Origin: Burkholderiales bacterium
Lineage (GTDB): Bacteria > Pseudomonadota > Gammaproteobacteria > Burkholderiales > JBILQJ01
DNA: 64,000 nucleotides
Direction of reading: 5' to 3'
NCBI GenBank assembly: GCA_044373325.1
Contig: JBILQJ010000004.1
Coordinates: 10,115 to 74,114 of the forward strand
Part shown: one piece after another, positions 1 through 64,000 of the stretch
Position numbering within the stretch: position 1 is the stretch's first letter
How the letters are laid out: the number at the start of each line of letters is the position of its first letter
The notes under the pieces: generated by a model
The model's database searches: none
What the model saw: the letters and a program-made list of their open reading frames with translations, nothing else
What the model was told of the DNA's origin: nothing
Position numbers and translations under genes: made by a program

Positions 1-523
1 CATGCAGTTGATAAGATTTAGGTATGTTTTTTAATAAAGCCAATTCAACGGCCAAGACGGTTTTGCCTTGGGCTAATCCTGTTCGGTTAGACACTCTAAA
101 AATATGCGTATCAACGGCCATGGTCAATTGGCCAAAAGCCGTGTTTAAAATAACATTGGCTGTTTTGCGGCCAACCCCTGGTAAAGATTCCAGCTCGGCG
201 CGGGTTTGAGGGACTTGGCCATTAAATTTTTGTAATAATAGGGTGCAAGTTTCTATGATGTGTTTGGCTTTGGTTTTGTAATAATTGATTGATTTGACGT
301 GAGCCTCTACTTTTTCTAAGCCCAAATCCAACATAGCTTGCGCATTGGGTGCTGCCGCAAATAAAGCACGCGTGGCTTTGTTGACACCCACATCGGTGGC
401 TTGAGCCGACAGCAAAACCGCGATTAACAGTTGAAAGGGCGATTGGTATTCAAGTTCTGTTTTGGGGTGAGGGTTGGCCGCAGCCAACCGCGCGAATAAT
501 TCACTTCTGGTTTGACGATTCAT
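1..523 (-). CDS. nth: endonuclease III (Nth), N-terminal part; continues beyond window start
   Basis: Absent from the ORF track because it has no stop in the window. My translation from the ATG (complement of 521-523) gives MNRQTRSELFARLAAANPHPKTELEYQSPFQLLIAVLLSAQATDVGVNKATRALF...LPGVGRKTANVILNTAFG...AVDTHIFRV. This is collinear with E. coli Nth, including the helix-hairpin-helix. Confidence 0.85.
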   Translation of the reverse strand, partial: MNRQTRSELFARLAAANPHPKTELEYQSPFQLLIAVLLSAQATDVGVNKATRALFAAAPNAQAMLDLGLEKVEAHVKSINYYKTKAKHIIETCTLLLQKFNGQVPQTRAELESLPGVGRKTANVILNTAFGQLTMAVDTHIFRVSNRTGLAQGKTVLAVELALLKNIPKSYQLH

Positions 524-746
524 GGTGCGTAGGCTTTCTGTTTTTTTGTCTGGTGGAAAGGTAAAAATCCTTGGCGGAAAAAGGGGAGTATCGTGTAAAA
601 TGCGCCCATCATTTTGACGGGCTGCTTTTCGTCTCAAGCGAGCGTCCTTTGCTTTTTTGTCTTTAGTGCCTTATTCTTAATGGATATCCTTAATTTTAGT
701 ATTTTCATTTGTCGTTCCGTCCTTATTTTAAATCAGAAAGAAAAAC

Positions 747-2015
747 ATGGCTCAACTAAAAATTGTTGGCAGTAATCGACCTTTAGAAGGTGAAATCTCC
801 ATTTCTGGGGCTAAAAATGCGGCTTTGCCGATTTTGTGCACCAGTTTATTAACGGCTGACACCATGCGCTATTCTAATGTGCCCATGTTGTCTGATGTGT
901 TGACGGTGCAAAAATTGTTGCAAAAAATGGGCGTGCGCGTCATGACCGACAATGTGCATGAAATGGACATTACCGCCAGCCAATTAACCAGCTTGACTGC
1001 GCCTTACGAATTGGTGAAAACCATGCGCGCGTCTATTTTGGTGTTGGGGCCAACTTTGGCGCGTTTTGGTGAGGCGCAAGTCTCTTTACCTGGTGGCTGC
1101 GCCATCGGCAGTCGTCCTGTGGAACAGCACATTAAAGGTTTACAGGCGATGGGCGCAACGATAGACATTGAACATGGTTATGTGAAAGCGTCTGGGCGAT
1201 TGAAAGGCGCTCATGTTTATATGGACATGGTGACGGTGGGCGGCACTGAAAATTTATTGATGGCGGCGACGTTGGCGCAAGGCACAACGGTGCTAGAAAA
1301 TGCCGCTTGCGAGCCTGAAGTGACTGATTTGGCGCATTGCTTGGTGGCCATGGGCGCAAAAATCAGCGGCATCGGCACATCGCGTTTGGTGATAGAAGGT
1401 GTGCCAAGCTTGCACGGCGCAAGTCATAAAATCATGCCTGATCGCATAGAAGCAGGCACTTTTTTGGTGGCTGGCGCCATGACGCAAGGCAAAATCGTGT
1501 TGCGTAACGCCGCGCCTAAAAGCATGGAAATTGTGTTGGATAAACTGTCCGAATCGGGTGCCGTCATCGAATGTGGTCAAGATTGGATTTCTTTGGACAT
1601 GAAACAGCGTCCGCGCGCGGTAGACATTCGAACCTTGCCTTATCCCGCTTTTCCAACGGATATGCAAGCGCAATTGATGACTTTAAACGCTGTGGCGCAA
1701 GGCACGAGCAAAGTCACCGAAACCATCTTTGAAAACCGCTTTATGCACGTTCCAGAACTCAATCGCATGGGTGCAGACATTACCGTTGATGGACATACAG
1801 CGGTGATTAAAGGGGTAGAAAAATTGTCTGGCACGACCGTGATGGCAACCGATTTACGCGCTTCGGCCAGTTTGGTGGTGGCGGGTTTAATTGCTGACGG
1901 CGTGACTACGGTGGATCGCATTTATCACTTAGACCGTGGCTACGAAAATATCGAAAAGAAATTAAACGATGTGGGCGCAGAAATCACGCGCGTTAACCAA
2001 GGCAGTGAAGAATAA
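747..2015 (+). CDS. murA: UDP-N-acetylglucosamine 1-carboxyvinyltransferase
   Basis: 422-aa ORF with full-length MurA pattern: [13 protein letters not shown] and the active-site Cys loop [15 protein letters not shown]. Confidence 0.95.
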
Positions 2016-2029
2016 CTCTTAACTTGGGC

Positions 2030-2075
2030 TTGTGGCCAACCTTTTTGCTTTGATTAGGCAAAAGGTTGGCCACAA
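2030..2075. repeat. inverted pair of 12-mer variant (TTGTGGCCAACC ... GGTTGGCCACAA) forming a hairpin behind murA
   Basis: cttgtggccaacctttttgc-tttgattag-gcaaaaggttggccacaag. Confidence 0.8.
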
Positions 2076-2102
2076 GCCTGTGCTTATCGCTCTTAAAAAT
2101 GG

Positions 2103-2555: not shown

Positions 2556-2986
2556 CGCCCTTTGCGGTCAACCTTTGCCCTCAATAACACCTGAACAATT
2601 CGAATAAGGTTGACCGTAAAACCATGTCGGAGCTTAATTGGATTTTATGTATCTTGATTTTTCTTATTAAGCGAAACAAGTAAGCTTGTCTTATAATTTA
2701 TTAGAAGTCATTTTTGTTGGTGTTAAGGGCGTTTGTTTTTTGAGATTAATTTTTTTTAGAATAACATTTTTAAATTTCTTGTAAATTGTTTTTTTATAGC
2801 TTGTTTTTAAATGGCAAAAATTAAAATAATTTCTTTTTTGTTATTATAACGGTTGTCATGATAGGGGCTTAGGCGCGACAAATATTCATTAAAAAAAATC
2901 CTATCGAGTGATTTTTTTAAGTTTAATTCTGTCTTTTAAGTTATTTTTTTTGTTAGTTAATTCCATATTTTAAAAAGAAAGTTTAC

Positions 2987-3666: not shown

Positions 3667-3714
3667 TTGCGGCCAACCTTTTTCCTCAAAAATGAGGAAG
3701 AAGGTTGGCCGCAA
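3667..3714. repeat. inverted pair of the 12-mer (hairpin between the convergent Sel1 and ligase genes)
   Basis: ttgcggccaacc-tttttcctcaaaaatgaggaagaa-ggttggccgcaa. Confidence 0.9.
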
Positions 3715-4603: not shown

Positions 4604-4971
4604 GCGCAGTGCCTTTCGAAAGTATAAAACAACGAAAAATTAAAGCGTTAGATTAAGCTCGGCCATTTTGCCACGCGGCCAACCTTTTGTGGTTAATTTT
4701 TTTAAATTTTTTGGATTGATTTTAATCAGTGATGAAAGCGGTTTGCGTTTTTTAAGGTCAAATTATCATTTTTATTCCCGAATTTTGTCGGGTTTTTATG
4801 TTTTTTTAAGAGGACGAGTAGAATATTTTACAAGCAAATTAAGCCACGCCAACCAAAAAAGGTTGGCCGCAAATCAATTTGCGTTAAGAAAAGGCAATGA
4901 TGCTAATGCCAGCGCAACTTTTTTATGATACGCTAGGCCTGACATTCAACCTTTAGCATTTTAAATCTTAA

Positions 4972-6434: not shown

Positions 6435-6483
6435 TTGCGGCCAACCTTTTAACGTGAACATCACGGACAAAGGTTGGCCGCAA
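6435..6483. repeat. inverted pair of the 12-mer, ACGTGAA-loop subfamily
   Basis: ttgcggccaacc-ttttaacgtgaacatcacggacaaa-ggttggccgcaa. Confidence 0.9.
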
Positions 6484-8470: not shown

Positions 8471-8518
8471 TTGCGGCCAACCTTTTGCGTGTTTTTCACG
8501 TAAAAAGGTTGGCCGCAA
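8471..8518. repeat. inverted pair of the 12-mer (between the convergent eamA and nrdB)
   Basis: ttgcggccaacc-ttttgcgtgtttttcacgtaaaaa-ggttggccgcaa. Confidence 0.9.
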
Positions 8519-9519: not shown

Positions 9520-9544
9520 TTGGGGTCTCTTAATCTGGATGGAT

Positions 9545-11344: not shown

Positions 11345-11439
11345 AGTTTAATTGCCTTCATTATGAAGCAATGCCCTTAAAGTTTATTTAAAATCAGGGA
11401 AAAAGGTTGGCCGCAAAGGTTTTTGAGCTGGACGGCAAC

Positions 11440-13735: not shown

Positions 13736-13743
13736 TTTACCCC

Positions 13744-13790
13744 TTGCGGCCAACCTTTTTCCGATTTTGGTGGAAAAAGGTTGGCCGCAA
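13744..13790. repeat. inverted pair of the 12-mer
   Basis: ttgcggccaacc-tttttccgattttggtggaaaaa-ggttggccgcaa. Confidence 0.9.
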
Positions 13791-16433: not shown

Positions 16434-16482
16434 TTGCGGCCAACCTTTTTTCTGAAAAATCAGTGAAAAAGGTTGGCCGCAA
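16434..16482. repeat. inverted pair of the 12-mer
   Basis: ttgcggccaacc-ttttttctgaaaaatcagtgaaaaa-ggttggccgcaa. Confidence 0.9.
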
Positions 16483-17275: not shown

Positions 17276-18733
17276 ATGACCGATTTTTATGCTTTATTTC
17301 GCGCCCATTTGAGCGCCCATTTGCCTCAAGAAACCCATTGGGGCATTGCTTTGTCTGGTGGCGTGGATTCTGTCGTATTGCTGGATTTGTTGGCGCGCGC
17401 CCTCAACGAGCCGCAAGGCAAACAGCCCGCCTTAAAAGCCAAAGGCATCGAGTTGAGTGCTTTGCACGTCAATCACGGACTGAACCCGCAAGCCCCAGTT
17501 TGGGCAGCGCATTGCGCCGAGTTGTGCGCCAAACTTTGTGTGCCTTTTACGGTGATGTTTGTCGATTGTGGTTTGGCCGAAGGGGGTTCTGTCGAAGCCT
17601 TGGCTCGAGCAGCCCGATATGATGCCTTTGCGCGTTATGGTGCTCAATCGGGTGCGTCGGCCATGTTGTTGGCGCATCACGCCGATGACCTTGCCGAAAC
17701 CCAATTGTTACAAATATTGCGCGGCGCGGGTGTCAAAGGTTTGGCGTCCATGCCTGCCAAACGTTACGCCAACGCCGATGCGCCCCAATTAATTTGGCGA
17801 CCTTTATTGCCGTTTACCCGTGCCCAAATCGTGGCTTATGCGCACGAACGCGGCCTCACTTGGGTGGAAGATGACAGCAATCAAAATAGACGTTTTACGC
17901 GCAATGCGCTGCGCCACGACGTGATGCCACATATTGCGCAAATGTGGCCGCATTATCGCCAACATTTGGCCAGAAGTGCGCTGTTGTGTGCCGATTCGGC
18001 CAGTGTTTTAGAAGAAGTCGCGCAACTGGATGCGGCCAACTGCGCCGACACCAACGGCTTAATGCAAGGGTTGAATTTAGAAGCTTGTTTGCGCTTGTCG
18101 CCGCCTAGACAACGCTTGTTATTACAGTTTTTTTTACAGCAACAAGCCTTTTTTATGCCAACGCCGCAGGCTTTAGAAGATTTTCGGCGGCAATTAAACG
18201 ACAGTCGTGCGCAAACGTCCCCTTATTTGATTTTGCAAACCCAAGCGCGCGCCCATCAAAATCACGCCGCGCAAAAAAAAGCCACAGGCGTATTGATACG
18301 CTACCGCAATTTGGTGGTGGCTGCGCCTGTCGATGTGTTGGCCGATCAACCGCTACAAGAGCATTTGAAGCTTGATGGTGTGGGCGTTTATCCCTTGACT
18401 CAATTGGGCGGTGCTTTGCACATCAGCCTCGCTGCGCCGCATGAAATGGGCTTGCCTTTGTCGATTTTGCAAGACACTTTGCACATCAAATCCCGCACGG
18501 GCGGCGAGCTATTGGCGCAAAAGGTTGGCCGCAAACCCTTAAAAACGGTGATGCAAGACATGGGCATTCCACCCGTGTTACGTCAATATTGGCCTTTGAT
18601 TTACGACCAGCAACATACCTTATTGGCCGTTGCGAGTGGAGCTATGAGTTGTCATCATCAAGCGTTGGGCGGCGTTAAAGTGGCTTGGTTATGGACAAAT
18701 TTTTGTGAACAAGAAAGGGTGAACCATGCATAA
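17276..18733 (+). CDS. tilS: tRNA(Ile)-lysidine synthase
   Basis: PP-loop ALSGGVDSVVL. The ORF-track start at 17261 is TTG; the ATG is at 17276. Confidence 0.85.
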   Translation: MTDFYALFRAHLSAHLPQETHWGIALSGGVDSVVLLDLLARALNEPQGKQPALKAKGIELSALHVNHGLNPQAPVWAAHCAELCAKLCVPFTVMFVDCGLAEGGSVEALARAARYDAFARYGAQSGASAMLLAHHADDLAETQLLQILRGAGVKGLASMPAKRYANADAPQLIWRPLLPFTRAQIVAYAHERGLTWVEDDSNQNRRFTRNALRHDVMPHIAQMWPHYRQHLARSALLCADSASVLEEVAQLDAANCADTNGLMQGLNLEACLRLSPPRQRLLLQFFLQQQAFFMPTPQALEDFRRQLNDSRAQTSPYLILQTQARAHQNHAAQKKATGVLIRYRNLVVAAPVDVLADQPLQEHLKLDGVGVYPLTQLGGALHISLAAPHEMGLPLSILQDTLHIKSRTGGELLAQKVGRKPLKTVMQDMGIPPVLRQYWPLIYDQQHTLLAVASGAMSCHHQALGGVKVAWLWTNFCEQERVNHA

Positions 18734-19571: not shown

Positions 19572-19621
19572 TTGCGGCCAACCTTGTTAGCTCAAATTCT
19601 GCTGAAAAAGGTTGGCCACAA
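19572..19621. repeat. inverted pair of the 12-mer (right arm is the variant GGTTGGCCACAA)
   Basis: ttgcggccaacc-ttgttagctcaaattctgctgaaaaa-ggttggccacaa. Confidence 0.85.
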
Positions 19622-23142: not shown

Positions 23143-23199
23143 TTGCGGCCAACCTTTTCCAAGTTTTCAACACGAAAACAGGAAAAAGGTTGGCCGCAA
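23143..23199. repeat. inverted pair of the 12-mer, GTTTTCGTGTTGAAAA-loop subfamily (inverted orientation)
   Basis: ttgcggccaacc-ttttccaagttttcaacacgaaaacaggaaaaa-ggttggccgcaa. Confidence 0.9.
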
Positions 23200-28652: not shown

Positions 28653-28704
28653 GAGTTTATTTGTTAATTGCAAAATTCGCTAAAAAAGGTTGGCCGCAAG
28701 AGGG

Positions 28705-37651: not shown

Positions 37652-37700
37652 TTGCGGCCAACCTTTTTTCCAAAATGTCAGGGAAAAAGGTTGGCCGCAA
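37652..37700. repeat. inverted pair of the 12-mer
   Basis: ttgcggccaacc-ttttttccaaaatgtcagggaaaaa-ggttggccgcaa. Confidence 0.9.
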
Positions 37701-40050: not shown

Positions 40051-40100
40051 TTGCGGCCAACCTTTTTCTCGTGATTTTCACGTTAAAAGGTTGGCCGCAA
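40051..40100. repeat. inverted pair of the 12-mer, ACGTGAA-loop subfamily (inverted orientation)
   Basis: ttgcggccaacc-tttttctcgtgattttcacgttaaaa-ggttggccgcaa. Confidence 0.9.
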
Positions 40101-44836: not shown

Positions 44837-45232
44837 TTAAAACAGCATGAGCTGATCGGGCTTGGCGAGGCGTTGACGCTGGCCACCGCGAAACGAACGG
44901 ATTTGGCCGTATTGTTTGTCGGTAAAGCACAGCACATCGACTTTGCCGCCCTCGGGCAAGGCCAGCTGAATTTTGTTGAGCAGACTCAAATAATGCGCTT
45001 TGCTGCCGCAGACGCGCATATAAACCGACAACTGCGCCATTTCAAAGCCCTGATCGAGCAAAGACAAGCGAAAAGCCTGCGCGTTTTTGCGTTCGGTTTT
45101 GGTCAGCGTGGGCAAATCAAACATCACCAATAGCCACATGATTCGGTACCCCGATAATAAAGTGTTGAGCGGATTGGACGGTGCCATATCGGCTGCGGCC
45201 AACCTTTTGATGGGTTTTAGGCGTTTACTCAT
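44837..45232 (-). CDS. cas2: Cas2 (type II)
   Basis: 131 aa with LSGYRIMWLLVMFDLPTLTKTERK... (beta1 with the conserved Asp). AGGAG RBS, and the start is 20 nt after the cas1 stop. The N-terminus is about 15 aa longer than usual (alternative start 45187). Confidence 0.9.
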   Translation of the reverse strand: MSKRLKPIKRLAAADMAPSNPLNTLLSGYRIMWLLVMFDLPTLTKTERKNAQAFRLSLLDQGFEMAQLSVYMRVCGSKAHYLSLLNKIQLALPEGGKVDVLCFTDKQYGQIRSFRGGQRQRLAKPDQLMLF

Positions 45233-45252: not shown

Positions 45253-46353
45253 TTACAACTCAAAATCGTCGTCTGACGGCTCGTCATCAAACGGCGTGCT
45301 GTCGGCCAAAGGGGGCGCATTGAACGCGCGATTGGCCGCGTAACCATTGGCGCGGTAAACGTTGGCCGCAAGGGGCAACAGCAGCTCGGTTTTTTCTTTG
45401 AGATAAACCTGCGCCAAACTGGAAGCCAAGCGCTGCATGGCCAAGGCCGCAGGACTTTTGCCATAAGGCATGACCACCGCGTGATCCAACACGTTGGCCA
45501 ACACGCGTTTGGCCGCTGGCGTTAAACAGGCTTGGGCTTGGGCGTGAGTCGTAAAATCTTGCCCCGAAGCGCGCGCCGTGTCGAGCAAAGACAGCGCCCG
45601 AAAATCCACCAAAGGCCGAAAGACTTCCATTAAATCGTCCACCAAGCGCATGGGATTGAGTTCGTGCCGATGAAATAAGCCCAAAGCAGGGTGCAAGCCC
45701 GCCGAACACACCGCCCGCGCCATGGCGCTGCGCAGTACCGTGTAGCCGTAATTTAAAAAAAGGTTGGCCGCAACATAAGGCGGATGCGCGTTGTATCCTT
45801 GGCGTTTAAAGCGGCCATCAGCCTTGCCGTCTTCCTCGCCCTGCACATCGCCCACGGAGGGAAACAACAGCCCCCAATACAAACGCGCCGCCGTGGCTTC
45901 CACATTGGTGACATCGCCCGATTGCACGCGCCCGACCAAAGCCAACACAGGCCGCACATCGCGACCCAAAGCGTCCAGTAAAGCCGCTTGCTGGCTGATT
46001 TTGGCTTTGACCAAGGCCGCCCACAGGCGCTTTTTTTGGGGTTGCGTCACCAATAACTGCGCCTCAAATCGCGCAGCCATGCTTTGATGTCCCGCCAAAG
46101 GCAACAGCTGGCTGATGGGCTGATGATGCCGATCGCACACCGTAAAAATGATGCCGTGTTCGGCAAACGCCACCAAGATGGTGTTGCTGTAAGTGATGCC
46201 GTAAGCGTGGGCAATCACGGCACTGATGTCGCTTAATGCCACGCGCCCCAATTCGTGCGTCACGCCTGCTTGCGTGCGCGTCAGCACCAAAAATCCTCGG
46301 TAACTTCTTAGATGAACGTGGTTTTCGCTGATGTCTATGATGCGATGCCTCAT
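45253..46353 (-). CDS. cas1: Cas1 (type II)
   Basis: 366 aa with NLFLNYGYTVLRSAMARAV and GLHPALGLFHRHELNPMRLVDDLMEVFRPLVD. It carries an extra Gly/Asp-rich insert and an acidic C-terminal tail (DDEPSDDDFEL). Confidence 0.9.
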   Translation of the reverse strand: MRHRIIDISENHVHLRSYRGFLVLTRTQAGVTHELGRVALSDISAVIAHAYGITYSNTILVAFAEHGIIFTVCDRHHQPISQLLPLAGHQSMAARFEAQLLVTQPQKKRLWAALVKAKISQQAALLDALGRDVRPVLALVGRVQSGDVTNVEATAARLYWGLLFPSVGDVQGEEDGKADGRFKRQGYNAHPPYVAANLFLNYGYTVLRSAMARAVCSAGLHPALGLFHRHELNPMRLVDDLMEVFRPLVDFRALSLLDTARASGQDFTTHAQAQACLTPAAKRVLANVLDHAVVMPYGKSPAALAMQRLASSLAQVYLKEKTELLLPLAANVYRANGYAANRAFNAPPLADSTPFDDEPSDDDFEL

Positions 46354-46392: not shown

Positions 46393-46440
46393 GTGCGGCC
46401 AACTTTTTATCATGAATTTTTGATAAAAAGTTGGCCGCAA
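46393..46440. repeat. inverted pair of a 12-mer variant (GTGCGGCCAACT ... AGTTGGCCGCAA) about 40 nt upstream of the cas1 start
   Basis: gtgcggccaact-ttttatcatgaatttttgataaaa-agttggccgcaa. Confidence 0.85.
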
Positions 46441-46818: not shown

Positions 46819-46877
46819 TTGCGGCCAACCTTTTTCCAGTTTTCGTGTTGAAAATCAAGAAAAAAGGTTGGCCACAA
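46819..46877. repeat. inverted pair of the 12-mer, GTTTTCGTGTTGAAAA-loop subfamily
   Basis: ttgcggccaacc-tttttccagttttcgtgttgaaaatcaagaaaaaa-ggttggccacaa. Confidence 0.9.
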
Positions 46878-48793: not shown

Positions 48794-48842
48794 TTGCGGC
48801 CAACCTTTTCAACCCAAAACTGGGGAAAAAGGTTGGCCGCAA
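48794..48842. repeat. inverted pair of the 12-mer
   Basis: ttgcggccaacc-ttttcaacccaaaactggggaaaaa-ggttggccgcaa. Confidence 0.9.
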
Positions 48843-50795: not shown

Positions 50796-52295
50796 ATGTC
50801 TACAAACACAGCAAACGGCATCGTCAATCTTGCCCAATTAGAACCCACGGCCGTTTGGTCACATTTTCTAACCTTATGCCAAATTCCCCGTCCGTCCAAA
50901 CACGAACAAGCCTTGCGCGATTATTTATTGGGCTGGGCAGAATTGCTGGACTTGGCCACAGAAGTCGATGCGGCAGGCAATTTAATCATTCGCAAACCTG
51001 CCACGCTGGGCATGGAAAATCGACAAGGTGTTGTTTTACAAGGCCATTTGGACATGGTTTGCCAAGCCAATACGGGGACGGTGCATGATTTCTTTAAAGA
51101 CCCCATTCGACCAGTGATGAAAGACGGTTGGTTGGTGGCTGAAAACACCACGTTGGGCGCAGACAATGGCTTGGGCGTGGCGTTTGCTTTGGCCGTGCTG
51201 GAAAGCAATACCTTGGCGCATGGCCCCATAGAAGTTTTATTGACCGTGGACGAAGAGGCGGGCATGGGCGGCGCGTTGGGCTTGGCATCAGGCCGTTTGC
51301 AAGGCGATTTGTTGATTAACATCGACACCGAAGAATGGGGCGAGTTGTATTTGGGCTGTGCTGGCGGCGCTGATGTGGACATCCGCCGCGCTTACCAAAG
51401 CGAGGCTGTTCCCACAAATTGGCCAATTTTTAAAGTGACGCTGGACGGATTGATGGGCGGCCATTCTGGCGCTGACATTCATTTGGGGCGCGGCAATGCC
51501 AACAAATTATTAATTCGCTTGCTCACAAGGTTGGCCGCAAGCCATGCGATACGGTTGATAGAAATTGAAGGCGGCACAGCACGCAACGCCTTGCCCCGTG
51601 AAGCCTATGCCGTGATTGCGCTGCCTGCCGAACAAGCCGCCACCTTGGCCTTAGCCGTCAGCGATTACGCGAGCCTGTTGTGTCAAGAATTGGCTTTGGT
51701 GGATGACGGCGTGAAGTTGCGCACAGAAGCCTTTTCTCAAGAGGCGGCTGGCTCTCAACCACTGATGATGGCGGTGACCGATCAGGCGGCGATTTTGAAC
51801 GCCCTCAATGCCACGCCACATGGCGTGAAACGCATGAGCGCCCAAATTTCAGGCGTGGTCGAAACCTCCAATAACTTGGGCATCGTCAGCCTGAAAAATG
51901 GCACCTTGTTCGCCAATTGCATGGTGCGCTCTTTGATAGACAGTGGCGTGACGGCCTTGGCCGATGAAATCATCAGTTTGTACCGTTTGATTGGTGCCGA
52001 AGCACAAGCCTCTGGCCAATATCCAGGCTGGGCGCCCAACGCCAATTCGCCGCTGCTGGCCTTGTTTAAAGACGTGTATCAAAAAACGTTTGGCGAGCCA
52101 GCCCAAACCCAAGTCATTCACGCAGGTTTGGAATGTGGCTTGATTGGGTCGAAATATCCCAATATGGACATGATTTCGTTTGGCCCCACCATACGCGGCG
52201 CACACGCCCCTGGTGAACGGGTAGAAGTCGCCACGGTCGCCTTGGCGTGGCAGTTTTTGCAAGCGGTGTTGCAGGCGGTGCCAGTAAAGAGTTAA
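50796..52295 (+). CDS. pepD: aminoacyl-histidine dipeptidase (M20C, PepD-like)
   Basis: 499 aa with IPRPSKHE, GHLDMV, LGADNG and TVDEEAGMGGA. Confidence 0.85.
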   Translation: MSTNTANGIVNLAQLEPTAVWSHFLTLCQIPRPSKHEQALRDYLLGWAELLDLATEVDAAGNLIIRKPATLGMENRQGVVLQGHLDMVCQANTGTVHDFFKDPIRPVMKDGWLVAENTTLGADNGLGVAFALAVLESNTLAHGPIEVLLTVDEEAGMGGALGLASGRLQGDLLINIDTEEWGELYLGCAGGADVDIRRAYQSEAVPTNWPIFKVTLDGLMGGHSGADIHLGRGNANKLLIRLLTRLAASHAIRLIEIEGGTARNALPREAYAVIALPAEQAATLALAVSDYASLLCQELALVDDGVKLRTEAFSQEAAGSQPLMMAVTDQAAILNALNATPHGVKRMSAQISGVVETSNNLGIVSLKNGTLFANCMVRSLIDSGVTALADEIISLYRLIGAEAQASGQYPGWAPNANSPLLALFKDVYQKTFGEPAQTQVIHAGLECGLIGSKYPNMDMISFGPTIRGAHAPGERVEVATVALAWQFLQAVLQAVPVKS

Positions 52296-52325: not shown

Positions 52326-52362
52326 TTGCGGCCAACCTTTTGCCGTAAAAGGTTGGCCGCAA
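52326..52362. repeat. inverted pair of the 12-mer with a minimal loop
   Basis: ttgcggccaacc-ttttgccgtaaaa-ggttggccgcaa. Confidence 0.9.
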
Positions 52363-52401: not shown

Positions 52402-53346
52402 ATGAAAGCATGGCAAGCCAATATGGGTTTATTGATGTGCGCGTTAATTTGGGGATCGGCTTTTGTGGCCACCGATGTGGCGTTTGAATTTTTGCGCCCC
52501 ATACAAATGCAAACCTTGCGTTATGCGTTTGCGGCGGTGATTTTATCGGTGATTTGTTATAAAAAAGTGTTGACAATTTCGCGAGCGACTTGGCGCGCAG
52601 GCTTGATGTTGTCTGTGGTTTTCTTTTTTGCCTTTACGTCGCAATCGTATGGTTTGGCGATTACCACGCCGTCAAAAAATGCTTTTTTTACAACGGCCAA
52701 TGTGATTATGGTGCCGCTGATTTTGTATTTTTTTGCCAAAAAAAGCATGAGTAAAGACTTGATTTATGGCATTGCGTTGATGATGGTGGGGTTTTTCTTT
52801 ATTTGTTTTGAATTGAAAATTGAACAATTCGGGGCGAGTTTGTCCAATTTAGGCCAACAATTTAACTTTAATGTCGGCGATGGTTTGTCTTTGGTGTGCG
52901 CCTTGGGTTTTGCTTTGCACATTATTTTGACGGGCAAATACGTGTTAGAACATGACGGCGTGCAGTTGTTGTTGGTGCAAACTTGGTTCACTTTGCTGGC
53001 TTCTTTTTTGTGGCAAATGAGCGTGGGCGAATCGTTTAGCACCGTGCCAAACGAGCAACTCATACAAGCTTTGTGGCCGTGTTTGTACATGGCGGTTTTC
53101 AGTTCTATTGTGGCTTATGGCGGACAATTGATTTGCCAAAAATACACGCCGCCCTCTAACACCGCTGTTTTGTTGTCTTTAGAATCGGTGTTTGCGTGTT
53201 TGTTTTCGGTGGCTTTGGGGCGCGAACCGTATTTTAGCGGCTTGTTTGTGGGTGGCTTGTTGATTTTGTTTGGTGTGATTTGGGCAGAAGTCGGCCTGTT
53301 TTGGTTGCGGCCAACCTTGGCTCGCTTGCGTCCAGTCAAATCCTAA
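52402..53346 (+). CDS. EamA/DMT-family transporter (start at MKAWQANM)
   Basis: Ten hydrophobic segments. The upstream part of the track ORF is only the translated hairpin repeat. Confidence 0.7.
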   Translation: MKAWQANMGLLMCALIWGSAFVATDVAFEFLRPIQMQTLRYAFAAVILSVICYKKVLTISRATWRAGLMLSVVFFFAFTSQSYGLAITTPSKNAFFTTANVIMVPLILYFFAKKSMSKDLIYGIALMMVGFFFICFELKIEQFGASLSNLGQQFNFNVGDGLSLVCALGFALHIILTGKYVLEHDGVQLLLVQTWFTLLASFLWQMSVGESFSTVPNEQLIQALWPCLYMAVFSSIVAYGGQLICQKYTPPSNTAVLLSLESVFACLFSVALGREPYFSGLFVGGLLILFGVIWAEVGLFWLRPTLARLRPVKS

Positions 53347-53491: not shown

Positions 53492-54718
53492 ATGTCTGAT
53501 ATTAAAAAAGTCGTGTTAGCGTATTCTGGCGGTTTGGACACTTCGGTGATTTTAAAGTGGTTGCAAGACACTTATCACTGTGAAGTGGTGACGTTTACAG
53601 CAGATTTGGGGCAAGGTGAAGAGGTAGAACCCGCGCGTCAAAAAGCTTTGGCTTTGGGCATCAAACCCGAAAACATTTATATTGATGACTTGCGCGAAGA
53701 ATTTGTGCGTGATTTTGTGTTTCCCATGTTTCGCGCCAACGCCATTTATGAAGGCGAATATTTATTAGGCACGTCGATTGCGCGGCCTTTGATTTCTAAA
53801 CGCCAAATTGAAATTGCCAACGCCACAGGCGCAGATGCGGTATCGCACGGCGCAACGGGCAAAGGCAATGACCAAGTGCGTTTTGAATTGGGCTATTACG
53901 GTTTAAAACCTGACGTGAAAGTCATTGCGCCTTGGCGTGAATGGGATTTGTTGTCGCGTGAAAAATTATTGGCTTATGCCGAAAAACACGGCATACAAAT
54001 CACCAAGAAAAAAGACGGCAGCAGCCCGTATTCGACCGATGCCAATTTGTTGCACATTTCATACGAAGGCTTGTGGCTAGAAGATCCAGCGGCCGAACCT
54101 GAAGAATCTATGTGGCAATGGAGCGTGTCACCCGAAGCCGCGCCCGATGCCGCCGAATATGTCGAATTGACTTACGAAAAAGGCGACGTAGTCGCGATTG
54201 ATGGCGTAAAACTGTCGCCTGCCAGCGTGTTGACCAAGCTCAATCAATTGGGCAATAAACACGGCATAGGCCGTTTGGACATCGTTGAAAATCGTTATGT
54301 GGGCATGAAATCTCGCGGCTGTTACGAAACGCCCGGTGGCTCGATTTTGCTTAAAGCGCATCGCGCGATTGAATCCATTACTTTGGACAGAGAAGTGGCG
54401 CATTTAAAAGACGAATTGATGCCCAAATACGCGTCTATGATATACAACGGCTATTGGTGGAGTCCAGAACGCGCCATGATGCAAAGCATGATTGATGCGT
54501 CTCAAGCCACGGTTAACGGCTGGGTGCGCGTGAAATTGTACAAAGGCAACGTGATTATCGTGGGTCGCGACTCAAAAACCGACACCTTGTTTGACCCGAT
54601 GATTGCCACGTTTGACGAAGATGGCGGCGCGTATAATCACCTTGATGCGGCAGGCTTTATTCGCTTGAATTCTTTACGGTTACGCATTGCGGCCAACGCC
54701 AAAAAACAGCGTGGCTAA
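53492..54718 (+). CDS. argG: argininosuccinate synthase
   Basis: [11 protein letters not shown] and [13 protein letters not shown]; 408 aa. Confidence 0.95.
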
Positions 54719-54830
54719 GCGGTAAAAACTAGAAAAAGGTTGGCCGCATCATCGATACGACCAACCTTTTTGGCGTTTATGTTAACTGTTTTTTATGGCT
54801 AGTATTTTGATATAAAAAGGAAAATTGGCT

Positions 54831-57976: not shown

Positions 57977-58023
57977 TTGCGGCCAACCTTTTTCCAAAAA
58001 AATGGTAAAAAGGTTGGCCGCAA
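57977..58023. repeat. inverted pair of the 12-mer
   Basis: ttgcggccaacc-tttttccaaaaaaatggtaaaaa-ggttggccgcaa. Confidence 0.9.
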
Positions 58024-58823: not shown

Positions 58824-59596
58824 TGCCTTTGTGGTGCGATGCGCCAGAGCGGGCGACCTTGGCCGAGCAATTGGCTGAAAAATATGGCTTTTTTCGGGTG
58901 GAAAGTCAGCCTCAAGAGGGTTATTTTCTGTGGCTAACGGCGGAGCGCTTGTGTTTGGTGGCGGCCAATAATCTCAAAGCCTTGATTTTTGTGGATTGGG
59001 TGAGCGGCGCGGCCAAACACAGGCGCGATTTTGGCGGTGGGCGCGGCCAACCCATTGCGCGCGCGATGGGTTTGAAAGCCGCTACGCCCCTCACGCAGGT
59101 GGTCGATGCCACGGCAGGCATGGGCGGCGACAGTTTTGTGTTGGCCAGTTTGGGGTGTACCGTCACCATGATAGAACGCTCGCCCGTTGCGGCGGCCTTG
59201 CTGGAAGATGGTTTACAACGCGCCTTGGCCGACCCAGCCACGGTGGCGGTGGCCGAACGCGTGACCTTGCTGTATGGTGATGCGATTGCTTTGTTGCCAC
59301 AACTTAGCCCCAAACCGCAAGCCATTTTGGTGGATCCGATGTTTCCTGATACCAACAAAAAAAGCGCCGCGGCAAAAAAAGAAATGCAGGCTTTTCAAAC
59401 CTTGATGGGCGGCGATTTGGATGCGCCCGACTTATTAAAAGCCGCCATGCTGGCCTGTACGCATCGTGTGGTGGTCAAACGCCCAAGGTTGGCCGCAGCC
59501 ATTGAAGGCGTGCCGCCGTTTACGGCACAAATTGGCCAATCAACGCGGTTTGACATTTACAGCGTTAAAGCCTTGTTGGGGGCGGCTGGGACTTAG
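58820..59596 (+). CDS. rsmJ: 16S rRNA (guanine1516-N2)-methyltransferase
   Basis: VVDATAGMGGDSFVLA and VDPMFP (the RsmJ/YhiQ pattern). Overlaps the rnc stop by 4 nt. Confidence 0.8.
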   Translation: MMPLWCDAPERATLAEQLAEKYGFFRVESQPQEGYFLWLTAERLCLVAANNLKALIFVDWVSGAAKHRRDFGGGRGQPIARAMGLKAATPLTQVVDATAGMGGDSFVLASLGCTVTMIERSPVAAALLEDGLQRALADPATVAVAERVTLLYGDAIALLPQLSPKPQAILVDPMFPDTNKKSAAAKKEMQAFQTLMGGDLDAPDLLKAAMLACTHRVVVKRPRLAAAIEGVPPFTAQIGQSTRFDIYSVKALLGAAGT

Positions 59597-59684
59597 CACT
59601 GAGTACCTTGCGGCTAACCTTTTTTGTGGTGAAATAAAAAATCAATTTACAAAATAAAAGGCGTATGCCTTCAAAGGAGATTTT

Positions 59685-60099: not shown

Positions 60100-60149
60100 T
60101 TGCGGCCAACCTTTTTTCCGAAAAAACAGGGATAAAAGGTTGGCCGCAG
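60100..60149. repeat. inverted pair of the 12-mer (right arm ends in CAG)
   Basis: ttgcggccaacc-ttttttccgaaaaaacagggataaaa-ggttggccgcag. Confidence 0.85.
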
Positions 60150-60167: not shown

Positions 60168-62180
60168 ATGACGACTTTTTCTAAATTAAATGTGCCGCAA
60201 AGGGAAGCCATCCGTTATTTAGATGGGCCTTTGTTGGTGATTGCGGGCGCAGGCTCGGGTAAAACGCGCGTCATTACCGAAAAAATGGCGTATTTAATCG
60301 AAGAGATGGGCATTTCGGCCGCACACATTGCGGCCATTACGTTTACCAATAAAGCCGCCAAAGAAATGTTAAGCCGCATGAAAAACCGCTTGTCGAGCAG
60401 CGCCATACGCGGCTTGACGGTGTCCACTTTTCACTCTTTGGGCTTGAAAATTTTGCGTTTAGAAGCGCAGCATTTGGGCTATAAACCCAATTTTTCGATT
60501 TTAGATGCCAGCGATGCGGCAGGCATTTTGTCCGATATTATGGAAACGACCAGCAAAGATGAAGTGCGCAAAGTATCGGGGCGCATCAGTGCCTTAAAAA
60601 ATGATTTTATTGATCCAGCCGAGGCCAAAAGCGCCGCTCAAACGCCTTGGGACGAATACCTTGCGGACGTGTATTTTCGCTATCAAGAAACGCTTAAAGC
60701 CTACCAAGCGGTTGATTTTGATGATTTAATTCGCTTGCCCGTGGTGTTGTTTCAAGCCCGTGCCGACGTGTTGGAACGCTGGCAAAACACGCTGCGTTAT
60801 TTGTTGTTGGACGAATATCAAGACACCAATTTGTGCCAATACACTTTGATAAAATTGTTGGCGGGCGCGCGCGGCATGATGACGGCGGTGGGTGACGACG
60901 ATCAATCCATTTACGCTTGGCGTGGGGCGAATCGCGAAAATTTGAGCTTGTTGCAAAGCGATTTTCCGCGTTTGCAAGTCATTAAATTAGAACAAAATTA
61001 CCGCTCTTCGGTGCGCATTTTGCAAGCGGCCAATGCTGTGATTGCCAACAACCCCAAACTCTTTGATAAAAAACTGTGGTGCGAATTGGGCATGGGCGAT
61101 CCGTTGACGATATTTCAGTGCAAAAACGAAGAACACGAAGCCGAAACCGTCATACAACTGATGCAAGCGCACAAAGCCGAACACCGCACGCGCTGGTCGG
61201 ATTACGCCATTTTGTACCGCAGCAATTATCAAGCGCGGATTATCGAGCAAGGCTTGCGCAGTTTTCACGTGCCTTATCGCATGACGGGCGGCCAACCTTT
61301 TTTTGACAAAGCCGAAATCAAAACGCTGTTGGCTTATGTCAAATTAATCGCCAATCCCAAAGATGACACGGCCTTTATTCGTGCCTTGACCACGCCCAAA
61401 CGTGGCGTGGGCAACACCACCTTGGCCAAAATGGGGGCGTGGGCGAGTGCGCGCAAAATCAGCTTGTACGAAGCCTTAGAAAGCCACGGCCTCTCGGCAG
61501 AAATTGGCGCAGCGGCGGCGCAAGCTTTGGGCGAGTTTTATCAACTCATCGATCAATTCATGCACCAAGCCAACACGGGCAAATCGGGTGAGGTGTTGAC
61601 GCGTTTGTGCACGCAAATTGGCTATGAAGCGCATTTATATTTAACGTCCGAAACCCCCAAACAAGGCGAAACCAAGTGGAAAAATGTGCAAGAACTCATT
61701 GCTTGGCTGGACAAAAAGCAAGTCGAAGACGGCAAAAATTTGGTGGAAATGAGCCTAACCATTGCGTTGATGTCGTTGTTGGACGAGCAAGAAGACGAAG
61801 AGCTGGACGCGGTGCATTTATCGACTTTGCACGCGTCTAAGGGCTTGGAATATCCGCACGTGTATTTGATTGGTGCGGAAGAGGGCATTTTGCCGCACAG
61901 CGTGTCTATAGAAAATGGCGACATCGAAGAAGAGCGGCGCTTAATGTACGTGGGCATCACGCGCGCCAAACGCAGCTTGACGGTGACGCATTGCCACAAA
62001 CGCCGCAAAGCAGGCGAGTGGGAAATCATCGAACCATCGCGCTTTATCAACGAATTGCCTTTGGCCGATTGCCGTTATTTTGGCCGCGCCCAAGGCGAAG
62101 CCCAAATCAGCAAAACCGAAGGCGCAAGCAAATTGGCCAGTCTCTCGGCCATGTTGGCCGCAAAAGCCAAACCGCCATAA
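60168..62180 (+). CDS. rep: ATP-dependent DNA helicase Rep (UvrD/Rep family); start at MTTFSKLN
   Basis: LNVPQREAI...LVIAGAGSGKTRVIT, LLDEYQDTN and the YRS motif. The 671-aa length fits Rep better than UvrD. Confidence 0.8.
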   Translation: MTTFSKLNVPQREAIRYLDGPLLVIAGAGSGKTRVITEKMAYLIEEMGISAAHIAAITFTNKAAKEMLSRMKNRLSSSAIRGLTVSTFHSLGLKILRLEAQHLGYKPNFSILDASDAAGILSDIMETTSKDEVRKVSGRISALKNDFIDPAEAKSAAQTPWDEYLADVYFRYQETLKAYQAVDFDDLIRLPVVLFQARADVLERWQNTLRYLLLDEYQDTNLCQYTLIKLLAGARGMMTAVGDDDQSIYAWRGANRENLSLLQSDFPRLQVIKLEQNYRSSVRILQAANAVIANNPKLFDKKLWCELGMGDPLTIFQCKNEEHEAETVIQLMQAHKAEHRTRWSDYAILYRSNYQARIIEQGLRSFHVPYRMTGGQPFFDKAEIKTLLAYVKLIANPKDDTAFIRALTTPKRGVGNTTLAKMGAWASARKISLYEALESHGLSAEIGAAAAQALGEFYQLIDQFMHQANTGKSGEVLTRLCTQIGYEAHLYLTSETPKQGETKWKNVQELIAWLDKKQVEDGKNLVEMSLTIALMSLLDEQEDEELDAVHLSTLHASKGLEYPHVYLIGAEEGILPHSVSIENGDIEEERRLMYVGITRAKRSLTVTHCHKRRKAGEWEIIEPSRFINELPLADCRYFGRAQGEAQISKTEGASKLASLSAMLAAKAKPP

Positions 62181-62203
62181 GTCATCCGTTTCCACATAAA
62201 AAA

Positions 62204-62252
62204 CTGCGGCCAACCTTTTAACGTGAAAATCACGGTAGAAGGTTGGCCGCAA
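62204..62252. repeat. inverted pair of the 12-mer, ACGTGAA-loop subfamily; near-identical to the copy at 6435-6483
   Basis: ctgcggccaacc-ttttaacgtgaaaatcacggtagaa-ggttggccgcaa. Confidence 0.9.
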
Positions 62253-62395
62253 GGCTTTTAGGAGGTTATTTTTTTGCACACAAAAATTACAGTTCTTTAT
62301 TTATTAAATTTGCGTATAGTTAAATAAAAATATATAATGTTAATTTGAGTATTAAAATATTTTCGTTTTTTAATGTGTTTTCTTGGAGCTTTTTT

Positions 62396-64000
62396 ATGAA
62401 TCAGTCATATCGTTTAGTTTGGTCAGTCGTACGTAGTGCTTGGACTGTTGTCTCAGAATTAGCCAAATCCCACGCCAAATCGGGCGCGGCGATGGTGACG
62501 GTGGCGGCAGTCACCGCAGCTCTGCCAGCGCACGGCGCAGGGACTGTTAGCGCAACTGGGGGAAATACAGTCACCGTCGTTTCCGATACTTATACAGTAG
62601 GAAATGGCGTCTATGGTATCACTGCCAGCAATGGCAATATTCTATTCGACCAAGGTGGGATTTTTAACATTAATTCAACGGACACAGCGGCGCTAAGCGC
62701 CACCAATAACGGGACTATGGTCGAGCTGGGAAATGGCGGCGGCACTTATAAAATCAACACGGGCGTGGGAAGTTTCTATGCGATTGAAGCCCGAAGTGGC
62801 GGTAAAATTGATTTATCAAAAGCGGCCTCTGTTGAATTAACAACAGGGCATGCGGTTGGGGTTTGGGCGGATCAGGCCAACTCCAAAATAGACATCTCCA
62901 AACTCACTTTGAATCAAACTGGAACAGGCACGACAGGCTATGGCATTCAAGCCTCTGCGCTAGGCCAAATTACTATTGGAGAGCTGAATTTAACCACCAA
63001 TCAAACTGGTGTAAAGGTTAATGGTCTTAATCCCACCGTAACGATAGGGAATGCGACAACCAAAAGCAGCATCAATTCAACAGGTATTGGTGTTTTGGCA
63101 AGCAGCTCCGGCTCAGTGAGCTTAACCAATACCGACATCACTTCAACAGGTATTGGTGTTTTGGCAAACTCCGGCTCAGTGACTTTGACCGATGTTAGCA
63201 TTGCAACCAGCGGGGACAATGGAGCTGCTATAAGGACGGATTCAAACACTACCACTAATTTTGCTGGCACCAATACCATTAGTACGACAGGCGCAAACGC
63301 TGCTGGGTTGCTGCTTTATAAAGGCTCAAAAATAACAGGCGAATACACAGGCACGATCACAACAGGCGGTAGTGATGCCATAGGCATCGACTCGGCTGCG
63401 GCCAACCTTGCGCTTAAGAATGCAAATATCACCACGACAGGCCAGTATTCGCATGCCATTATGTTAACTGAGGGCACAACCACCATTACGGGCGGTTCTG
63501 TTACCACAGGTAAGTTGGGTGAGGACTCTCGCTCAACAGGCGTAAATACACGCTCGACGGGATCATCTGGTGATATTAACCTTTCTATTTCTGGCACAAA
63601 AATCGAAACTTTAGGTTTGAGTTCAGAGGGAGTTTCGTTGAACAACAAGGTAACCACCGGCTCCTTAAAAGACGTCAATATAATAACCCGCGGTGACAGT
63701 TCAAGGGGCCTTTCTTCGTCTGTGCGCGACCTTAACGTGTCCAATACGATAATCGAAACGACAGGGAGTTCTTCAACTGGCATTGCCATTGGGGTAGGAG
63801 GCCCTGACCCTGCCTTCAAAATGACTATTACGGGAGGTTCGGTCACCACTAGGGGCAGTCGCTCGGATGCTATGGTGTTTGGCAGCGGAAGTGCAAGTGG
63901 CCAGAACATATCTATTGATATTTCAGGCGGCACAAAAATCAAAACTTTCTCTGATAATTCAAGAGGACTTTATCTTGGGGGTACTACAAACGTAAAATTA
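62396..64000 (+). CDS. autotransporter-type adhesin with extended signal peptide region (ESPR); 5' part, continues beyond the window end
   Basis: Absent from the ORF track because it has no stop in the window. My translation gives MNQSYRLVWSVVRSAWTVVSELAKSHAKSGAAMVTVAAV..., which is the ESPR consensus (MNxxYRxxW...W.VVSEL). A Thr/Gly/Ser-rich repetitive passenger follows (TSTGIGVLA repeats). The frame is open for 535 codons. Confidence 0.8.
   Translation, partial: MNQSYRLVWSVVRSAWTVVSELAKSHAKSGAAMVTVAAVTAALPAHGAGTVSATGGNTVTVVSDTYTVGNGVYGITASNGNILFDQGGIFNINSTDTAALSATNNGTMVELGNGGGTYKINTGVGSFYAIEARSGGKIDLSKAASVELTTGHAVGVWADQANSKIDISKLTLNQTGTGTTGYGIQASALGQITIGELNLTTNQTGVKVNGLNPTVTIGNATTKSSINSTGIGVLASSSGSVSLTNTDITSTGIGVLANSGSVTLTDVSIATSGDNGAAIRTDSNTTTNFAGTNTISTTGANAAGLLLYKGSKITGEYTGTITTGGSDAIGIDSAAANLALKNANITTTGQYSHAIMLTEGTTTITGGSVTTGKLGEDSRSTGVNTRSTGSSGDINLSISGTKIETLGLSSEGVSLNNKVTTGSLKDVNIITRGDSSRGLSSSVRDLNVSNTIIETTGSSSTGIAIGVGGPDPAFKMTITGGSVTTRGSRSDAMVFGSGSASGQNISIDISGGTKIKTFSDNSRGLYLGGTTNVKL

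Follow-up and report, generated by a model that had tools for sequence, protein, structure and literature searches.

DNA uptake sequences are the textbook case of bacterial recognition of 'self' DNA, and to our knowledge they have been known for decades in only two bacterial families, as the DNA uptake sequence (DUS) of the Neisseriaceae and the uptake signal sequence (USS) of the Pasteurellaceae. A CTG core at positions +6 to +8, invariant and essential, is retained by every DUS dialect, the three additions of 2025 among them. Here we analyze a hyper-abundant 12-mer, GGTTGGCCGCAA/TTGCGGCCAACC, in a 64,000-nucleotide stretch of DNA deposited as Burkholderiales bacterium (GenBank assembly GCA_044373325.1, contig JBILQJ010000004.1, positions 10,115 to 74,114 of the forward strand). 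This whole stretch, hereafter the window, has 48% GC and carries ordinary housekeeping genes and a type II-C CRISPR-Cas locus. A first-pass annotation made from the letters of the window had proposed the 12-mer as a candidate uptake sequence unrelated to any described DUS or USS. Our analysis supports that proposal. The word is indeed unrelated to both, with no CTG core and neither of the USS cores AAGTGCGGT and ACAAGCGGT. Arguing by analogy, we put at roughly 60% the probability that aAAGGTTGGCCGCAa is the DNA uptake sequence of a previously undescribed family, functionally analogous to the DUS and the USS, with inverted pairs that double as terminators.

The 12-mer occurs 41 times as an exact match (21 copies on the plus strand and 20 on the minus strand), and all 41 start coordinates given by the first-pass annotation were reproduced, with none missing and none extra. 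Dinucleotide-preserving shuffles yielded a mean of 0.06 copies and a maximum of 2, and Markov models of order 1 to 4, a comparison proposed together with the original claim and run here on the window, predict 0.04–0.2 copies whether or not the copies were masked during model estimation. Another 21 copies differ by one mismatch and 23 by two, where at least 20 such copies had been announced, and the total with up to two mismatches is 85 against 13.6 expected. The positions quoted for the variants GGTTGGCCACAA (2064, 19610, 22114, and 46866), GGTTGGCCGCAG (472, 41654, 59487, and 60138), and AGTTGGCCGCAA (46429) are all correct. The commonest 12-mer of the window is AAGGTTGGCCGC, whose 50 copies exceed the 41 of GGTTGGCCGCAA, and the core of the unit was refined to aaAAGGTTGGCCGCAa(g). 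An alignment of the copies has the consensus aAAAAGGTTGGCCGCAAg(g) with a T-rich stretch a few bases to its 3' side, and in it the two terminal A's of the word are less conserved. All top-ranked 8- to 16-mers of the window overlap the motif, and the next repeat is that of the CRISPR array. The density amounts to 0.64/kb for the exact 12-mer, in agreement with the earlier estimate of near 0.6 per kb, and to 0.89/kb for GGTTGGCCGC, against about 0.001/kb expected. The widest gap between copies with at most one mismatch is 5 kb, which means that the enrichment extends across the entire window. It is not a local peculiarity either, since the word recurs at high density in a relative with 90% nucleotide identity from another metagenome (ENA ERZ19026863, here L025) and in Vogesella, several species of which carry it on unlinked contigs; its genome-wide status is extrapolated from the 64 kb and these unlinked loci. 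The abundance of the word is real and far beyond chance.

By a curated gene list of the window, 31 of the exact copies are intergenic (3.9/kb) and 10 lie inside genes (0.18/kb), as do 11 of the 21 one-mismatch copies, so the word is not restricted to intergenic hairpins. Family searches confirmed that the 10 intragenic exact copies sit in unrelated coding sequences, as had been claimed, and they are spread over eight genes (nth, tilS, a glycosyltransferase gene twice, recJ, cas9 twice, cas1, pepD, and an EamA transporter gene). Seven of these 10 encode Ala-Ala peptides (LAAN, LAAS, LAAK, or VAAN; either orientation), and the other three encode VGRK (two copies) and LRPT (one copy). The copies that stand singly are given below in window coordinates, the exact ones located by exact search and the genes around them assigned by family search.

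165..176, minus strand: exact copy in nth, encoding the conserved G-VGRK-T motif
18523..18534, plus strand: exact copy in tilS, VGRK frame
27114..27125, minus strand: exact copy in a GT4 glycosyltransferase gene, LAAS
27294..27305, plus strand: exact copy in a GT4 glycosyltransferase gene, antisense, VAAN
30957..30968, minus strand: exact copy in recJ, LAANLE, bordering a lineage-specific insertion of 12 residues
40980..40991, plus strand: exact copy in cas9, LAAK
42789..42800, minus strand: exact copy in cas9, antisense, LAANLE
45762..45773, plus strand: exact copy in cas1, antisense, VAAN
51529..51540, plus strand: exact copy in pepD, LAAS
53305..53316, minus strand: exact copy in an EamA transporter gene, antisense, LRPT
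4861..4872, plus strand: exact copy where ligE and a gltD-like gene diverge, overlapped only by a doubtful 86-residue open reading frame (ORF) without a family match
11405..11416, plus strand: exact intergenic copy between nrdA and a TonB-dependent receptor gene
28688..28699, plus strand: exact intergenic copy between rnfG- and rnfD-like genes, kept in L025
31709..31720, minus strand: exact intergenic copy after recJ, missing from the orthologous place in L025 (turnover)
32648..32659, plus strand: exact intergenic copy upstream of bamA, with one mismatch in L025
472..483, plus strand: one-mismatch copy (GGTTGGCCGCAG) in nth
22114..22125, plus strand: one-mismatch copy (GGTTGGCCACAA) in a ubiB/ABC1 kinase gene
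28427..28438, minus strand: one-mismatch copy in the rnfG-like gene
41654..41665, plus strand: one-mismatch copy in cas9
41890..41901, minus strand: one-mismatch copy in cas9
45193..45204, minus strand: one-mismatch copy in cas2
45360..45371, plus strand: one-mismatch copy in cas1
59487..59498, plus strand: one-mismatch copy in an S-adenosylmethionine (SAM) methyltransferase gene
59608..59619, minus strand: one-mismatch intergenic copy (GGTTAGCCGCAA)
62152..62163, plus strand: one-mismatch copy at the 3' end of rep
63396..63407, minus strand: one-mismatch copy in an autotransporter gene

The remaining copies are mostly arranged as inverted pairs. About 18 copies had been described as forming hairpins behind stop codons; the pairing at gene ends holds, and the count proved too low, as 26 of the 41 exact copies are paired (22 of them in 11 exact/exact pairs and four with a one-mismatch partner). 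With near-copy pairs included, the window has 17 well-formed pairs and two loose or decayed ones. Their orientation is invariably reverse then forward, the predicted hairpin energies of the 17 run from -26 to -51 kcal/mol, and 15 of the 17 lie directly after the 3' end of a gene, many of them between convergent genes. Most spacers differ in sequence and yet are self-complementary. T-runs follow many of the stems, and several pairs have no proximal T-run. The reverse-then-forward order places the T-rich 3' flank of the unit behind the stem on both strands, as a bidirectional intrinsic terminator needs, and we infer from structure and position that the pairs act as such terminators at gene ends. 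An Rfam scan of the window placed no RNA family over the hairpins, its sole match being a cobalamin riboswitch. The pairs are as follows, with predicted folding energies.

3667..3714: exact/exact pair between a convergent Sel1 protein gene (plus) and Lig E ligase gene (minus), terminator-like match, -43.3 kcal/mol
6435..6483: exact/exact pair 20 nt past the stop of a gltD-like gene, T-run next, -33.2 kcal/mol
8471..8518: exact/exact pair between convergent EamA (plus) and nrdB (minus) genes, -36.5 kcal/mol
13744..13790: exact/exact pair downstream of a polyprenyl synthetase gene (minus) and upstream of the cobalamin riboswitch, -51.0 kcal/mol
16434..16482: exact/exact pair between convergent genes, -37.0 kcal/mol
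23143..23199: exact/exact pair between convergent genes, kept in L025, loop related to that of the pair at 46819, -39.1 kcal/mol
37652..37700: exact/exact pair between convergent genes, -39.0 kcal/mol
40051..40100: exact/exact pair after guaB and upstream of cas9, -37.7 kcal/mol
48794..48842: exact/exact pair between convergent genes, -41.0 kcal/mol
52326..52362: exact/exact pair with a 13-nt spacer, directly past the pepD stop, -36.9 kcal/mol
57977..58023: exact/exact pair after a YfaZ-family gene, -36.3 kcal/mol
19572..19621: exact copy and one-mismatch copy (GGTTGGCCACAA), after a thiD-like gene, -26.1 kcal/mol
46819..46877: exact copy and one-mismatch copy, in a divergent intergenic region, -26.2 kcal/mol
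60100..60149: exact copy and one-mismatch copy, following apaG and preceding rep, whose family match starts at residue 34 of the long ORF, -31.8 kcal/mol
62204..62252: one-mismatch copy and exact copy, after the rep stop, -37.2 kcal/mol
2030..2075: two one-mismatch copies (GGTTGGCCACAA), after the aroA stop, -41.4 kcal/mol
46393..46440: two-mismatch and one-mismatch copies (AGTTGGCCGCA-), upstream of cas1, -31.7 kcal/mol
54687..54749: loose pair of two one-mismatch copies at the argG stop, -23.2 kcal/mol
2562..2619: decayed pair (GGTTGACCGCAA / GGTTGACCGTAA) after an arsC-family gene, -21.0 kcal/mol

The paired form was then scanned in 185,579 species genomes. At least 23 matches were obtained, and 22 of the 23 matches listed fall in five Vogesella species. 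These Vogesella pair loci have 57–68% GC, and their top 12-mer by far is again AAGGTTGGCCGC, with 91 copies in 172 kb. Because the loci had been chosen for having the pair, unbiased stretches of about 20 kb around recJ were sampled in other genomes, with the following outcome.

Vogesella sp. XCS3, recJ locus: GGTTGGCCGCA five times against 0.02 expected, all five copies intragenic
Crenobacter cavernae, recJ locus of 21.7 kb: top word GTTGGCCGAGCT seven times against 0 expected; three pairs ending in T-runs
Gulbenkiania mobilis, recJ locus of 21.7 kb: GGTTGGCCGAAG nine times against 0 expected; five of the nine copies lie inside genes, and two pairs separate convergent genes
Aquitalea, Chromobacterium piscinae, Paludibacterium paludis, and strain TC5R-5: recJ loci of equal size without a dominant word

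Together with the five species from the pair scan, XCS3 brings the Vogesella genomes in which the word is hyper-abundant to at least six. As a positive control, the same 20-kb sampling beside a Neisseriaceae ComP gene recovers a kingDUS-type word at similar density. A possible Aquitalea dialect was dropped, as GGTTTGCCGAAG occurs only three times, too few to call, and a low-GC pair form in the metagenome scan gave only three contigs of about 1.2 kb each, too little to use. The core GGTTGGCCG is common to three dialects, that of the window and Vogesella, that of Crenobacter (GGTTGGCCGAGCTTT), and that of Gulbenkiania (GGTTGGCCGAAGC). Their 3' ends differ: the window lineage and Vogesella have -CAA, Gulbenkiania, Pseudogulbenkiania, and Lutiella have -AAGC, and Crenobacter has -AGCTTT. 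The second of these has been counted before. In Table S1D of Frye et al. 2013, GTTGGCCGAA stands as the 10-mer with the strongest over-representation, with 1104 copies in Lutiella nitroferrum 2002 and 1153 in Pseudogulbenkiania sp. NH8B. This 10-mer, at more than 1100 copies per genome, shares the core GTTGGCCG, is the same word as GGTTGGCCGAAGC of Gulbenkiania mobilis, and ends in GAA where the window word has GCAA at its 3' end. Frye et al. 2013 saw no obvious DUS in Laribacter, Lutiella, Pseudogulbenkiania, and Chromobacterium, five genomes that include the two with GTTGGCCGAA, and left the table entry uninterpreted; it is the sole earlier trace of the word that we found. A literature search that covered the motif strings and any competence or uptake sequences of Vogesella, Crenobacter, Gulbenkiania, Pseudogulbenkiania, and Chromobacteriaceae, though not exhaustively, turned up no paper that interprets any of these words.

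Comparison of orthologous sites gives a view of how the copies come and go. In an alignment of recJ, the motif of the window lineage and the several copies that Vogesella has of its own occupy different positions, which indicates that copies were gained independently in each lineage. The RecJ of the window lineage also has a 12-residue (36-nt) insertion, LAANLEAAKLTN (window 30950-31000), not seen in seven sampled relatives outside the lineage, and the motif makes up its first codons. Relative to L025, eight of nine motif sites are kept and one has turned over, and four intergenic sites are identical at 47 of 48 positions, compared with 81% identity and many indels in the intergenic DNA around them. 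The synteny of the two contigs breaks exactly at the conserved pair at 23143, L025 encoding a type I restriction hsdR (its positions 96-3122) where the window has ubiB; this break fits recombination at or near the pair. The word appears scarce in the foreign-looking DNA sampled here. Directly downstream of recJ, Vogesella sp. XCS3 (CP085530) carries a filamentous CTX/Zot-type prophage (RstB, Phage_CRI, Coat_B, Zot; positions 11845-19000 of the locus), which is interrupted by a DDE transposase, has 54% GC against 59% in the core part, and contains almost no motif copies. The prophage-versus-core comparison suggested by the first-pass annotation was run on this locus only and, with small counts, assigns eight of nine copies of GTTGGCCGCA to the core half (11.8 kb) and one to the half of prophage and insertion sequence (9.9 kb). 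The Crenobacter locus has an integrase island of 7 kb that is free of copies, as is the hsdR of L025, and a scan of a viral contig collection returned no contig with the pair. Retention, independent gains, and scarcity in foreign DNA all point the same way, as signs, in small numbers, of ongoing spread and maintenance.

The hallmarks of an uptake sequence are present in this word, namely over-representation on both strands, coding and non-coding copies in a few tolerated frames, hairpin pairs at gene ends, and dialects in related taxa with four sampled genera that lack it. From these we infer an uptake bias and a receptor behind it, which could work as follows. A DNA receptor of the type IV pilus or competence machinery, at the surface or in the periplasm, would prefer double-stranded DNA that carries the word, and DNA of the same species would be taken up and recombined more often as a result. 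Such a bias combined with recombination would act as a molecular drive and spread the word wherever it is tolerated, that is, in intergenic DNA and in permissive codon contexts, mostly Ala-Ala (LAAN/LAAS) and VGRK. Reverse-then-forward copies with the 3' flank ...CAAGGnTTTT would form a long GC-rich stem with a T-run on either strand, and inverted pairs could thereby have been recruited to end transcription in both directions behind genes, as intrinsic terminators. Drift of receptor specificity between genera would yield dialects with a constant GGTTGGCCG and a variable 3' end.

Candidates for this receptor were sought with the N. meningitidis ComP sequence, verified against PDB 2m3k. A word-indexed search returned close Neisseria proteins only. 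A ComP profile searched against 1.84 billion representative proteins had among its best non-Neisseriaceae matches a PF16732 pilin, at 105 bits, from Crenobacter luteus, and a homologue of it is encoded in the same C. cavernae genome that carries the Crenobacter dialect. The Crenobacter pilin shares the ENAHFME-Y and WPxLP segments with ComP, and its structural model (predicted local distance difference test, pLDDT, of 90), built from an alignment that contained ComP, is nearest to the ComP structures 5hz7 and 2nba, ahead of P. aeruginosa PilE. The model makes this ComP-like minor pilin a possible candidate receptor in a motif-bearing genus. A scan of all loci with a prepilin-leader regular expression found none. 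A second ComP-like group, considered as the receptor of the carriers, was discarded after it proved to be from ordinary Neisseriaceae with kingDUS. Two adjacent ComP_DUS pilin genes were noticed in a Neisseriaceae contig (Logan SRR5568663, positions 9299-10426) whose abundant words are the palindromic, kingDUS-like TTCAGGCAGCCTGAA/AGGCTGCCTGAA and AGGCACCCTGAAA; that genome may have two DUS dialects with two receptors.

A number of observations weigh against an uptake sequence or against this receptor. The pilin model may draw part of its likeness from the ComP-containing alignment behind it, and the Crenobacter pilin has two Cys and one disulfide in place of the two disulfides of ComP. Its homologues in related contigs occupy the PilE slot that ends a fimU-pilVWX operon, two small contigs with such homologues have no motif, and motif-free Aquitalea also encodes a PF16732 pilin. 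No report of uptake or transformation in the carrier organisms was found in the literature searched. Hyper-abundant words without a link to uptake do exist, as exemplified by highly iterated palindrome 1 (HIP1) in cyanobacteria. The depletion in foreign DNA relies on one prophage and small counts. Lastly, the spacer measures 22–26 nt in 13 of the 17 pairs, and two loops recur, CGTGAnnnTCACG in the pairs at 6435, 8471, 40051, and 62204 and GTTTTCAACACGAAAAC in the pairs at 23143 and 46819, features that would also fit the copying of whole units.

Whole-unit copying is what one would expect of mobile hairpins of the repetitive extragenic palindromic (REP) or REPIN kind, moved as pairs by a transposase of the REP-associated tyrosine transposase (RAYT) type (IS200-like) encoded elsewhere in the genome, with single copies as decayed halves. 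Such elements are likewise abundant short repeats that often form hairpins as inverted pairs in intergenic DNA near gene ends, and the fixed order and spacing of the pairs, the two loop subfamilies (similarity scores of 12–17 against a shuffle 95th percentile of 10), an intergenic density 20 times that in coding DNA, and the recJ copy at the edge of the 36-nt insertion speak for them. REP units are extragenic, palindromic, and tied to a RAYT, and their sequences are normally species- or RAYT-specific, whereas the single unit here, AAAAGGTTGGCCGCAAG, is self-complementary only at GGCC, and 21 copies with at most one mismatch lie inside conserved genes of the window, in three frames and even in the catalytic GVGRK of nth. 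The sampled Vogesella and Gulbenkiania copies are mostly intragenic singles, and the core, with its dialect-like variation, is common to genera that have about 60% RecJ identity and differ by some 10-20 points in GC. A check for RAYT genes, proposed in the first-pass annotation and run on the window, found neither a RAYT nor any other transposase among the roughly 56 genes scanned. Most loops are unrelated, and a terminator's need for a T-rich 3' flank accounts for the arrangement of the pairs. We regard mobile hairpins as a distinctly unlikely source of the word; the shared loops suggest copying or exchange of entire pair units in some cases, perhaps occasionally.

An abundant word could also be maintained independently of uptake, in the manner of HIP1 (GCGATCGC), through a repair or gene-conversion bias, a methylation-linked motif (GGCC/GCGGCC), or binding of a chromosome-organizing protein. 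HIP1 is likewise hyper-abundant in genes and spacers across a clade, with a debated function, and abundance in coding and non-coding DNA, conservation across genera, and lack of strand polarity would be equally expected of such a word, with which the lack of uptake reports in the literature searched also agrees. HIP1 itself is an 8-bp perfect palindrome that overlaps a methylation site and forms no paired terminators, whereas the present word spans 12–16 bp and is non-palindromic, unlike words of methylation or repair. Neither a repair bias nor a nucleoid protein would long spare a resident prophage, from which the word is nearly absent (in a small sample), and genus-level dialects with complete absence in sister genera match the drift and loss of a DUS-type receptor. 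Outside the DUS and the USS, a paired-terminator habit is not known. This explanation appears unlikely to us. That the hairpins are simply terminators or mRNA-stabilizing structures with a common stem sequence, and the intragenic copies incidental, would agree with the position of 15 of 17 pairs just past stop codons and with strong stems, many followed by T-runs. Termination needs no particular 12–16-mer, several pairs lack the proximal T-run, and 15 exact copies are unpaired, 10 of them inside genes, where termination would be harmful and where about 0.05 exact copies are expected by chance; we consider this account very improbable. Still harder to credit is a polar chromosome motif such as Chi (RecBCD/AddAB) or the FtsK-orienting polar sequences (KOPS). 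Over-represented short oligomers of recombination are known, and several copies do lie in DNA-repair genes (nth, recJ, rep), but the word was rejected as such a motif for its lack of polarity (21 plus against 20 minus copies, mostly in inverted pairs), and it is also longer (12–16 bp against 5–8 bp) and far denser than Chi.

The host of the word is best placed through RecJ. Matches with at least 92% identity occur only in Logan and ENA metagenome assemblies, and identity to named relatives is 59–63%, nearly all of these being Chromobacteriaceae (Vogesella, Crenobacter, Chromobacterium, Gulbenkiania, Aquitalea, and Paludibacterium). The gene neighborhood of recJ in the window differs from the order common to the named genera. 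By these sequence comparisons, the host is an uncultured betaproteobacterial lineage, a deep-branching relative of the Chromobacteriaceae within the order of Neisseria, and the RecJ relatives place it outside the Neisseriaceae sensu stricto. A competence context is offered by a Lig E-type minimal ATP-dependent DNA ligase of 287 residues with an N-terminal signal peptide (window 3740-4603, minus strand; best PDB matches 4d05, 6gdr, and 8u6x), past whose stop codon the pair 3667..3714 directly follows. Lig E is periplasmic and in N. gonorrhoeae is reported to increase transformation when the DNA is damaged, which makes its presence circumstantial support for an uptake sequence.

Other features of the window were noted along the way. 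The type II-C CRISPR-Cas locus (40406-46353) has an unusual layout, with cas9 on the plus strand (40406-43828) followed by the CRISPR array (43920-44559, about 10 repeats), on which cas2 (44837-45232) and cas1 (45253-46353) converge from the minus strand. Its 36-nt repeat, GTTCCGATTGGCTCACATTTTCTAATTTGTTATAAT, ends in an extended -10-like TGTTATAAT; repeat-embedded promoters with an extended -10 at the repeat end are known in Neisseria II-C systems. The many motif copies in its cas genes make the locus look long-resident. An (AAAT)~13 / (AATAAATG)~6 microsatellite at 40129-40179, between the motif pair 40051-40100 and the start of cas9, is possibly a phase-variable tract. The cobalamin riboswitch (13554-13729, minus strand, 76 bits) lies upstream of the TonB-dependent receptor gene (11440-13341, minus strand), and a mechanically called ORF over the riboswitch, at 13330-13707 on the plus strand, is spurious. 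A type V autotransporter that has an ESPR extended signal peptide begins on the plus strand (62345-64000) and is cut off where the window ends.

We hold it slightly better than an even bet that the word represents a third, sequence-unrelated family of uptake sequences, with the core GGTTGGCCG and at least three dialects, in environmental Chromobacteriaceae-like betaproteobacteria, the carriers being Vogesella, Crenobacter, Gulbenkiania/Pseudogulbenkiania/Lutiella, and the uncultured 48% GC lineage. If this is true, self-biased natural transformation is not limited to the host-associated Neisseriaceae and Pasteurellaceae, and either a DUS-type system is older than the split of Neisseriaceae and Chromobacteriaceae or such systems had two origins in the order. 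It would also imply a new receptor specificity, possibly that of a ComP/PilE-like minor pilin. If relatives of Neisseria living free in freshwater and soil have such a third family, it would show how uptake-sequence systems arise, drift, and die, and sister genera with and without the word would make phylogenetic profiling for the receptor possible. Frye et al. 2013 report no ComP in C. violaceum and conclude that the DUS arose after the split from it, a conclusion that the word family would put to the test. Vogesella and Pseudogulbenkiania are culturable and non-pathogenic, and such carriers make the hypothesis directly testable and these genera possible models for uptake specificity. On the practical side, the word could serve as a marker of core versus foreign DNA, help in binning metagenomes of carrier lineages, and, when added to constructs, ease the transformation of carrier bacteria.

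How the word stands relative to the two established families can be stated in detail. The Pasteurellaceae USS resembles it in a density of about 1/kb, in A/T-rich flanks, in inverted pairs that serve as terminators, and in copies placed within genes where the frame tolerates them. The USS belongs to Gammaproteobacteria and the present word to a betaproteobacterium, and in place of a USS core the two share only GCGG, on the reverse strand of the window/Vogesella dialect. The other dialects have TCGG and CTCGG there, so this resemblance is probably due to chance. The DUS (GCCGTCTGAA and its dialects) combines the CTG core with an A at +10, and CTG is absent from both strands of AAGGTTGGCCGCAA, GGTTGGCCGAAGC, and GGTTGGCCGAGCTTT, which are therefore not DUS dialects. 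Homology to either the DUS or the USS was rejected on these grounds. Two further differences from the DUS are that the pairs here run reverse then forward around a long structured spacer (about 25 nt) and that the carriers are Chromobacteriaceae-like. In most other respects listed here the DUS (5'-ATGCCGTCTGAA-3' and dialects, including those of Vitreoscilla and N. animalis from 2025) offers a close parallel. It too is a 10–12-mer found at about 0.5–1/kb on both strands, in coding and non-coding DNA, with intragenic copies in particular frames, inverted pairs as terminator-like hairpins at gene ends, and genus-level dialects around a fixed core. Its hosts belong to the same order, and a ComP-like minor pilin is present in at least one carrier genus of the word described here. 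By this analogy, a shared core with differing 3' ends and a patchy spread among sister genera is the pattern of the Neisseriaceae DUS dialects.

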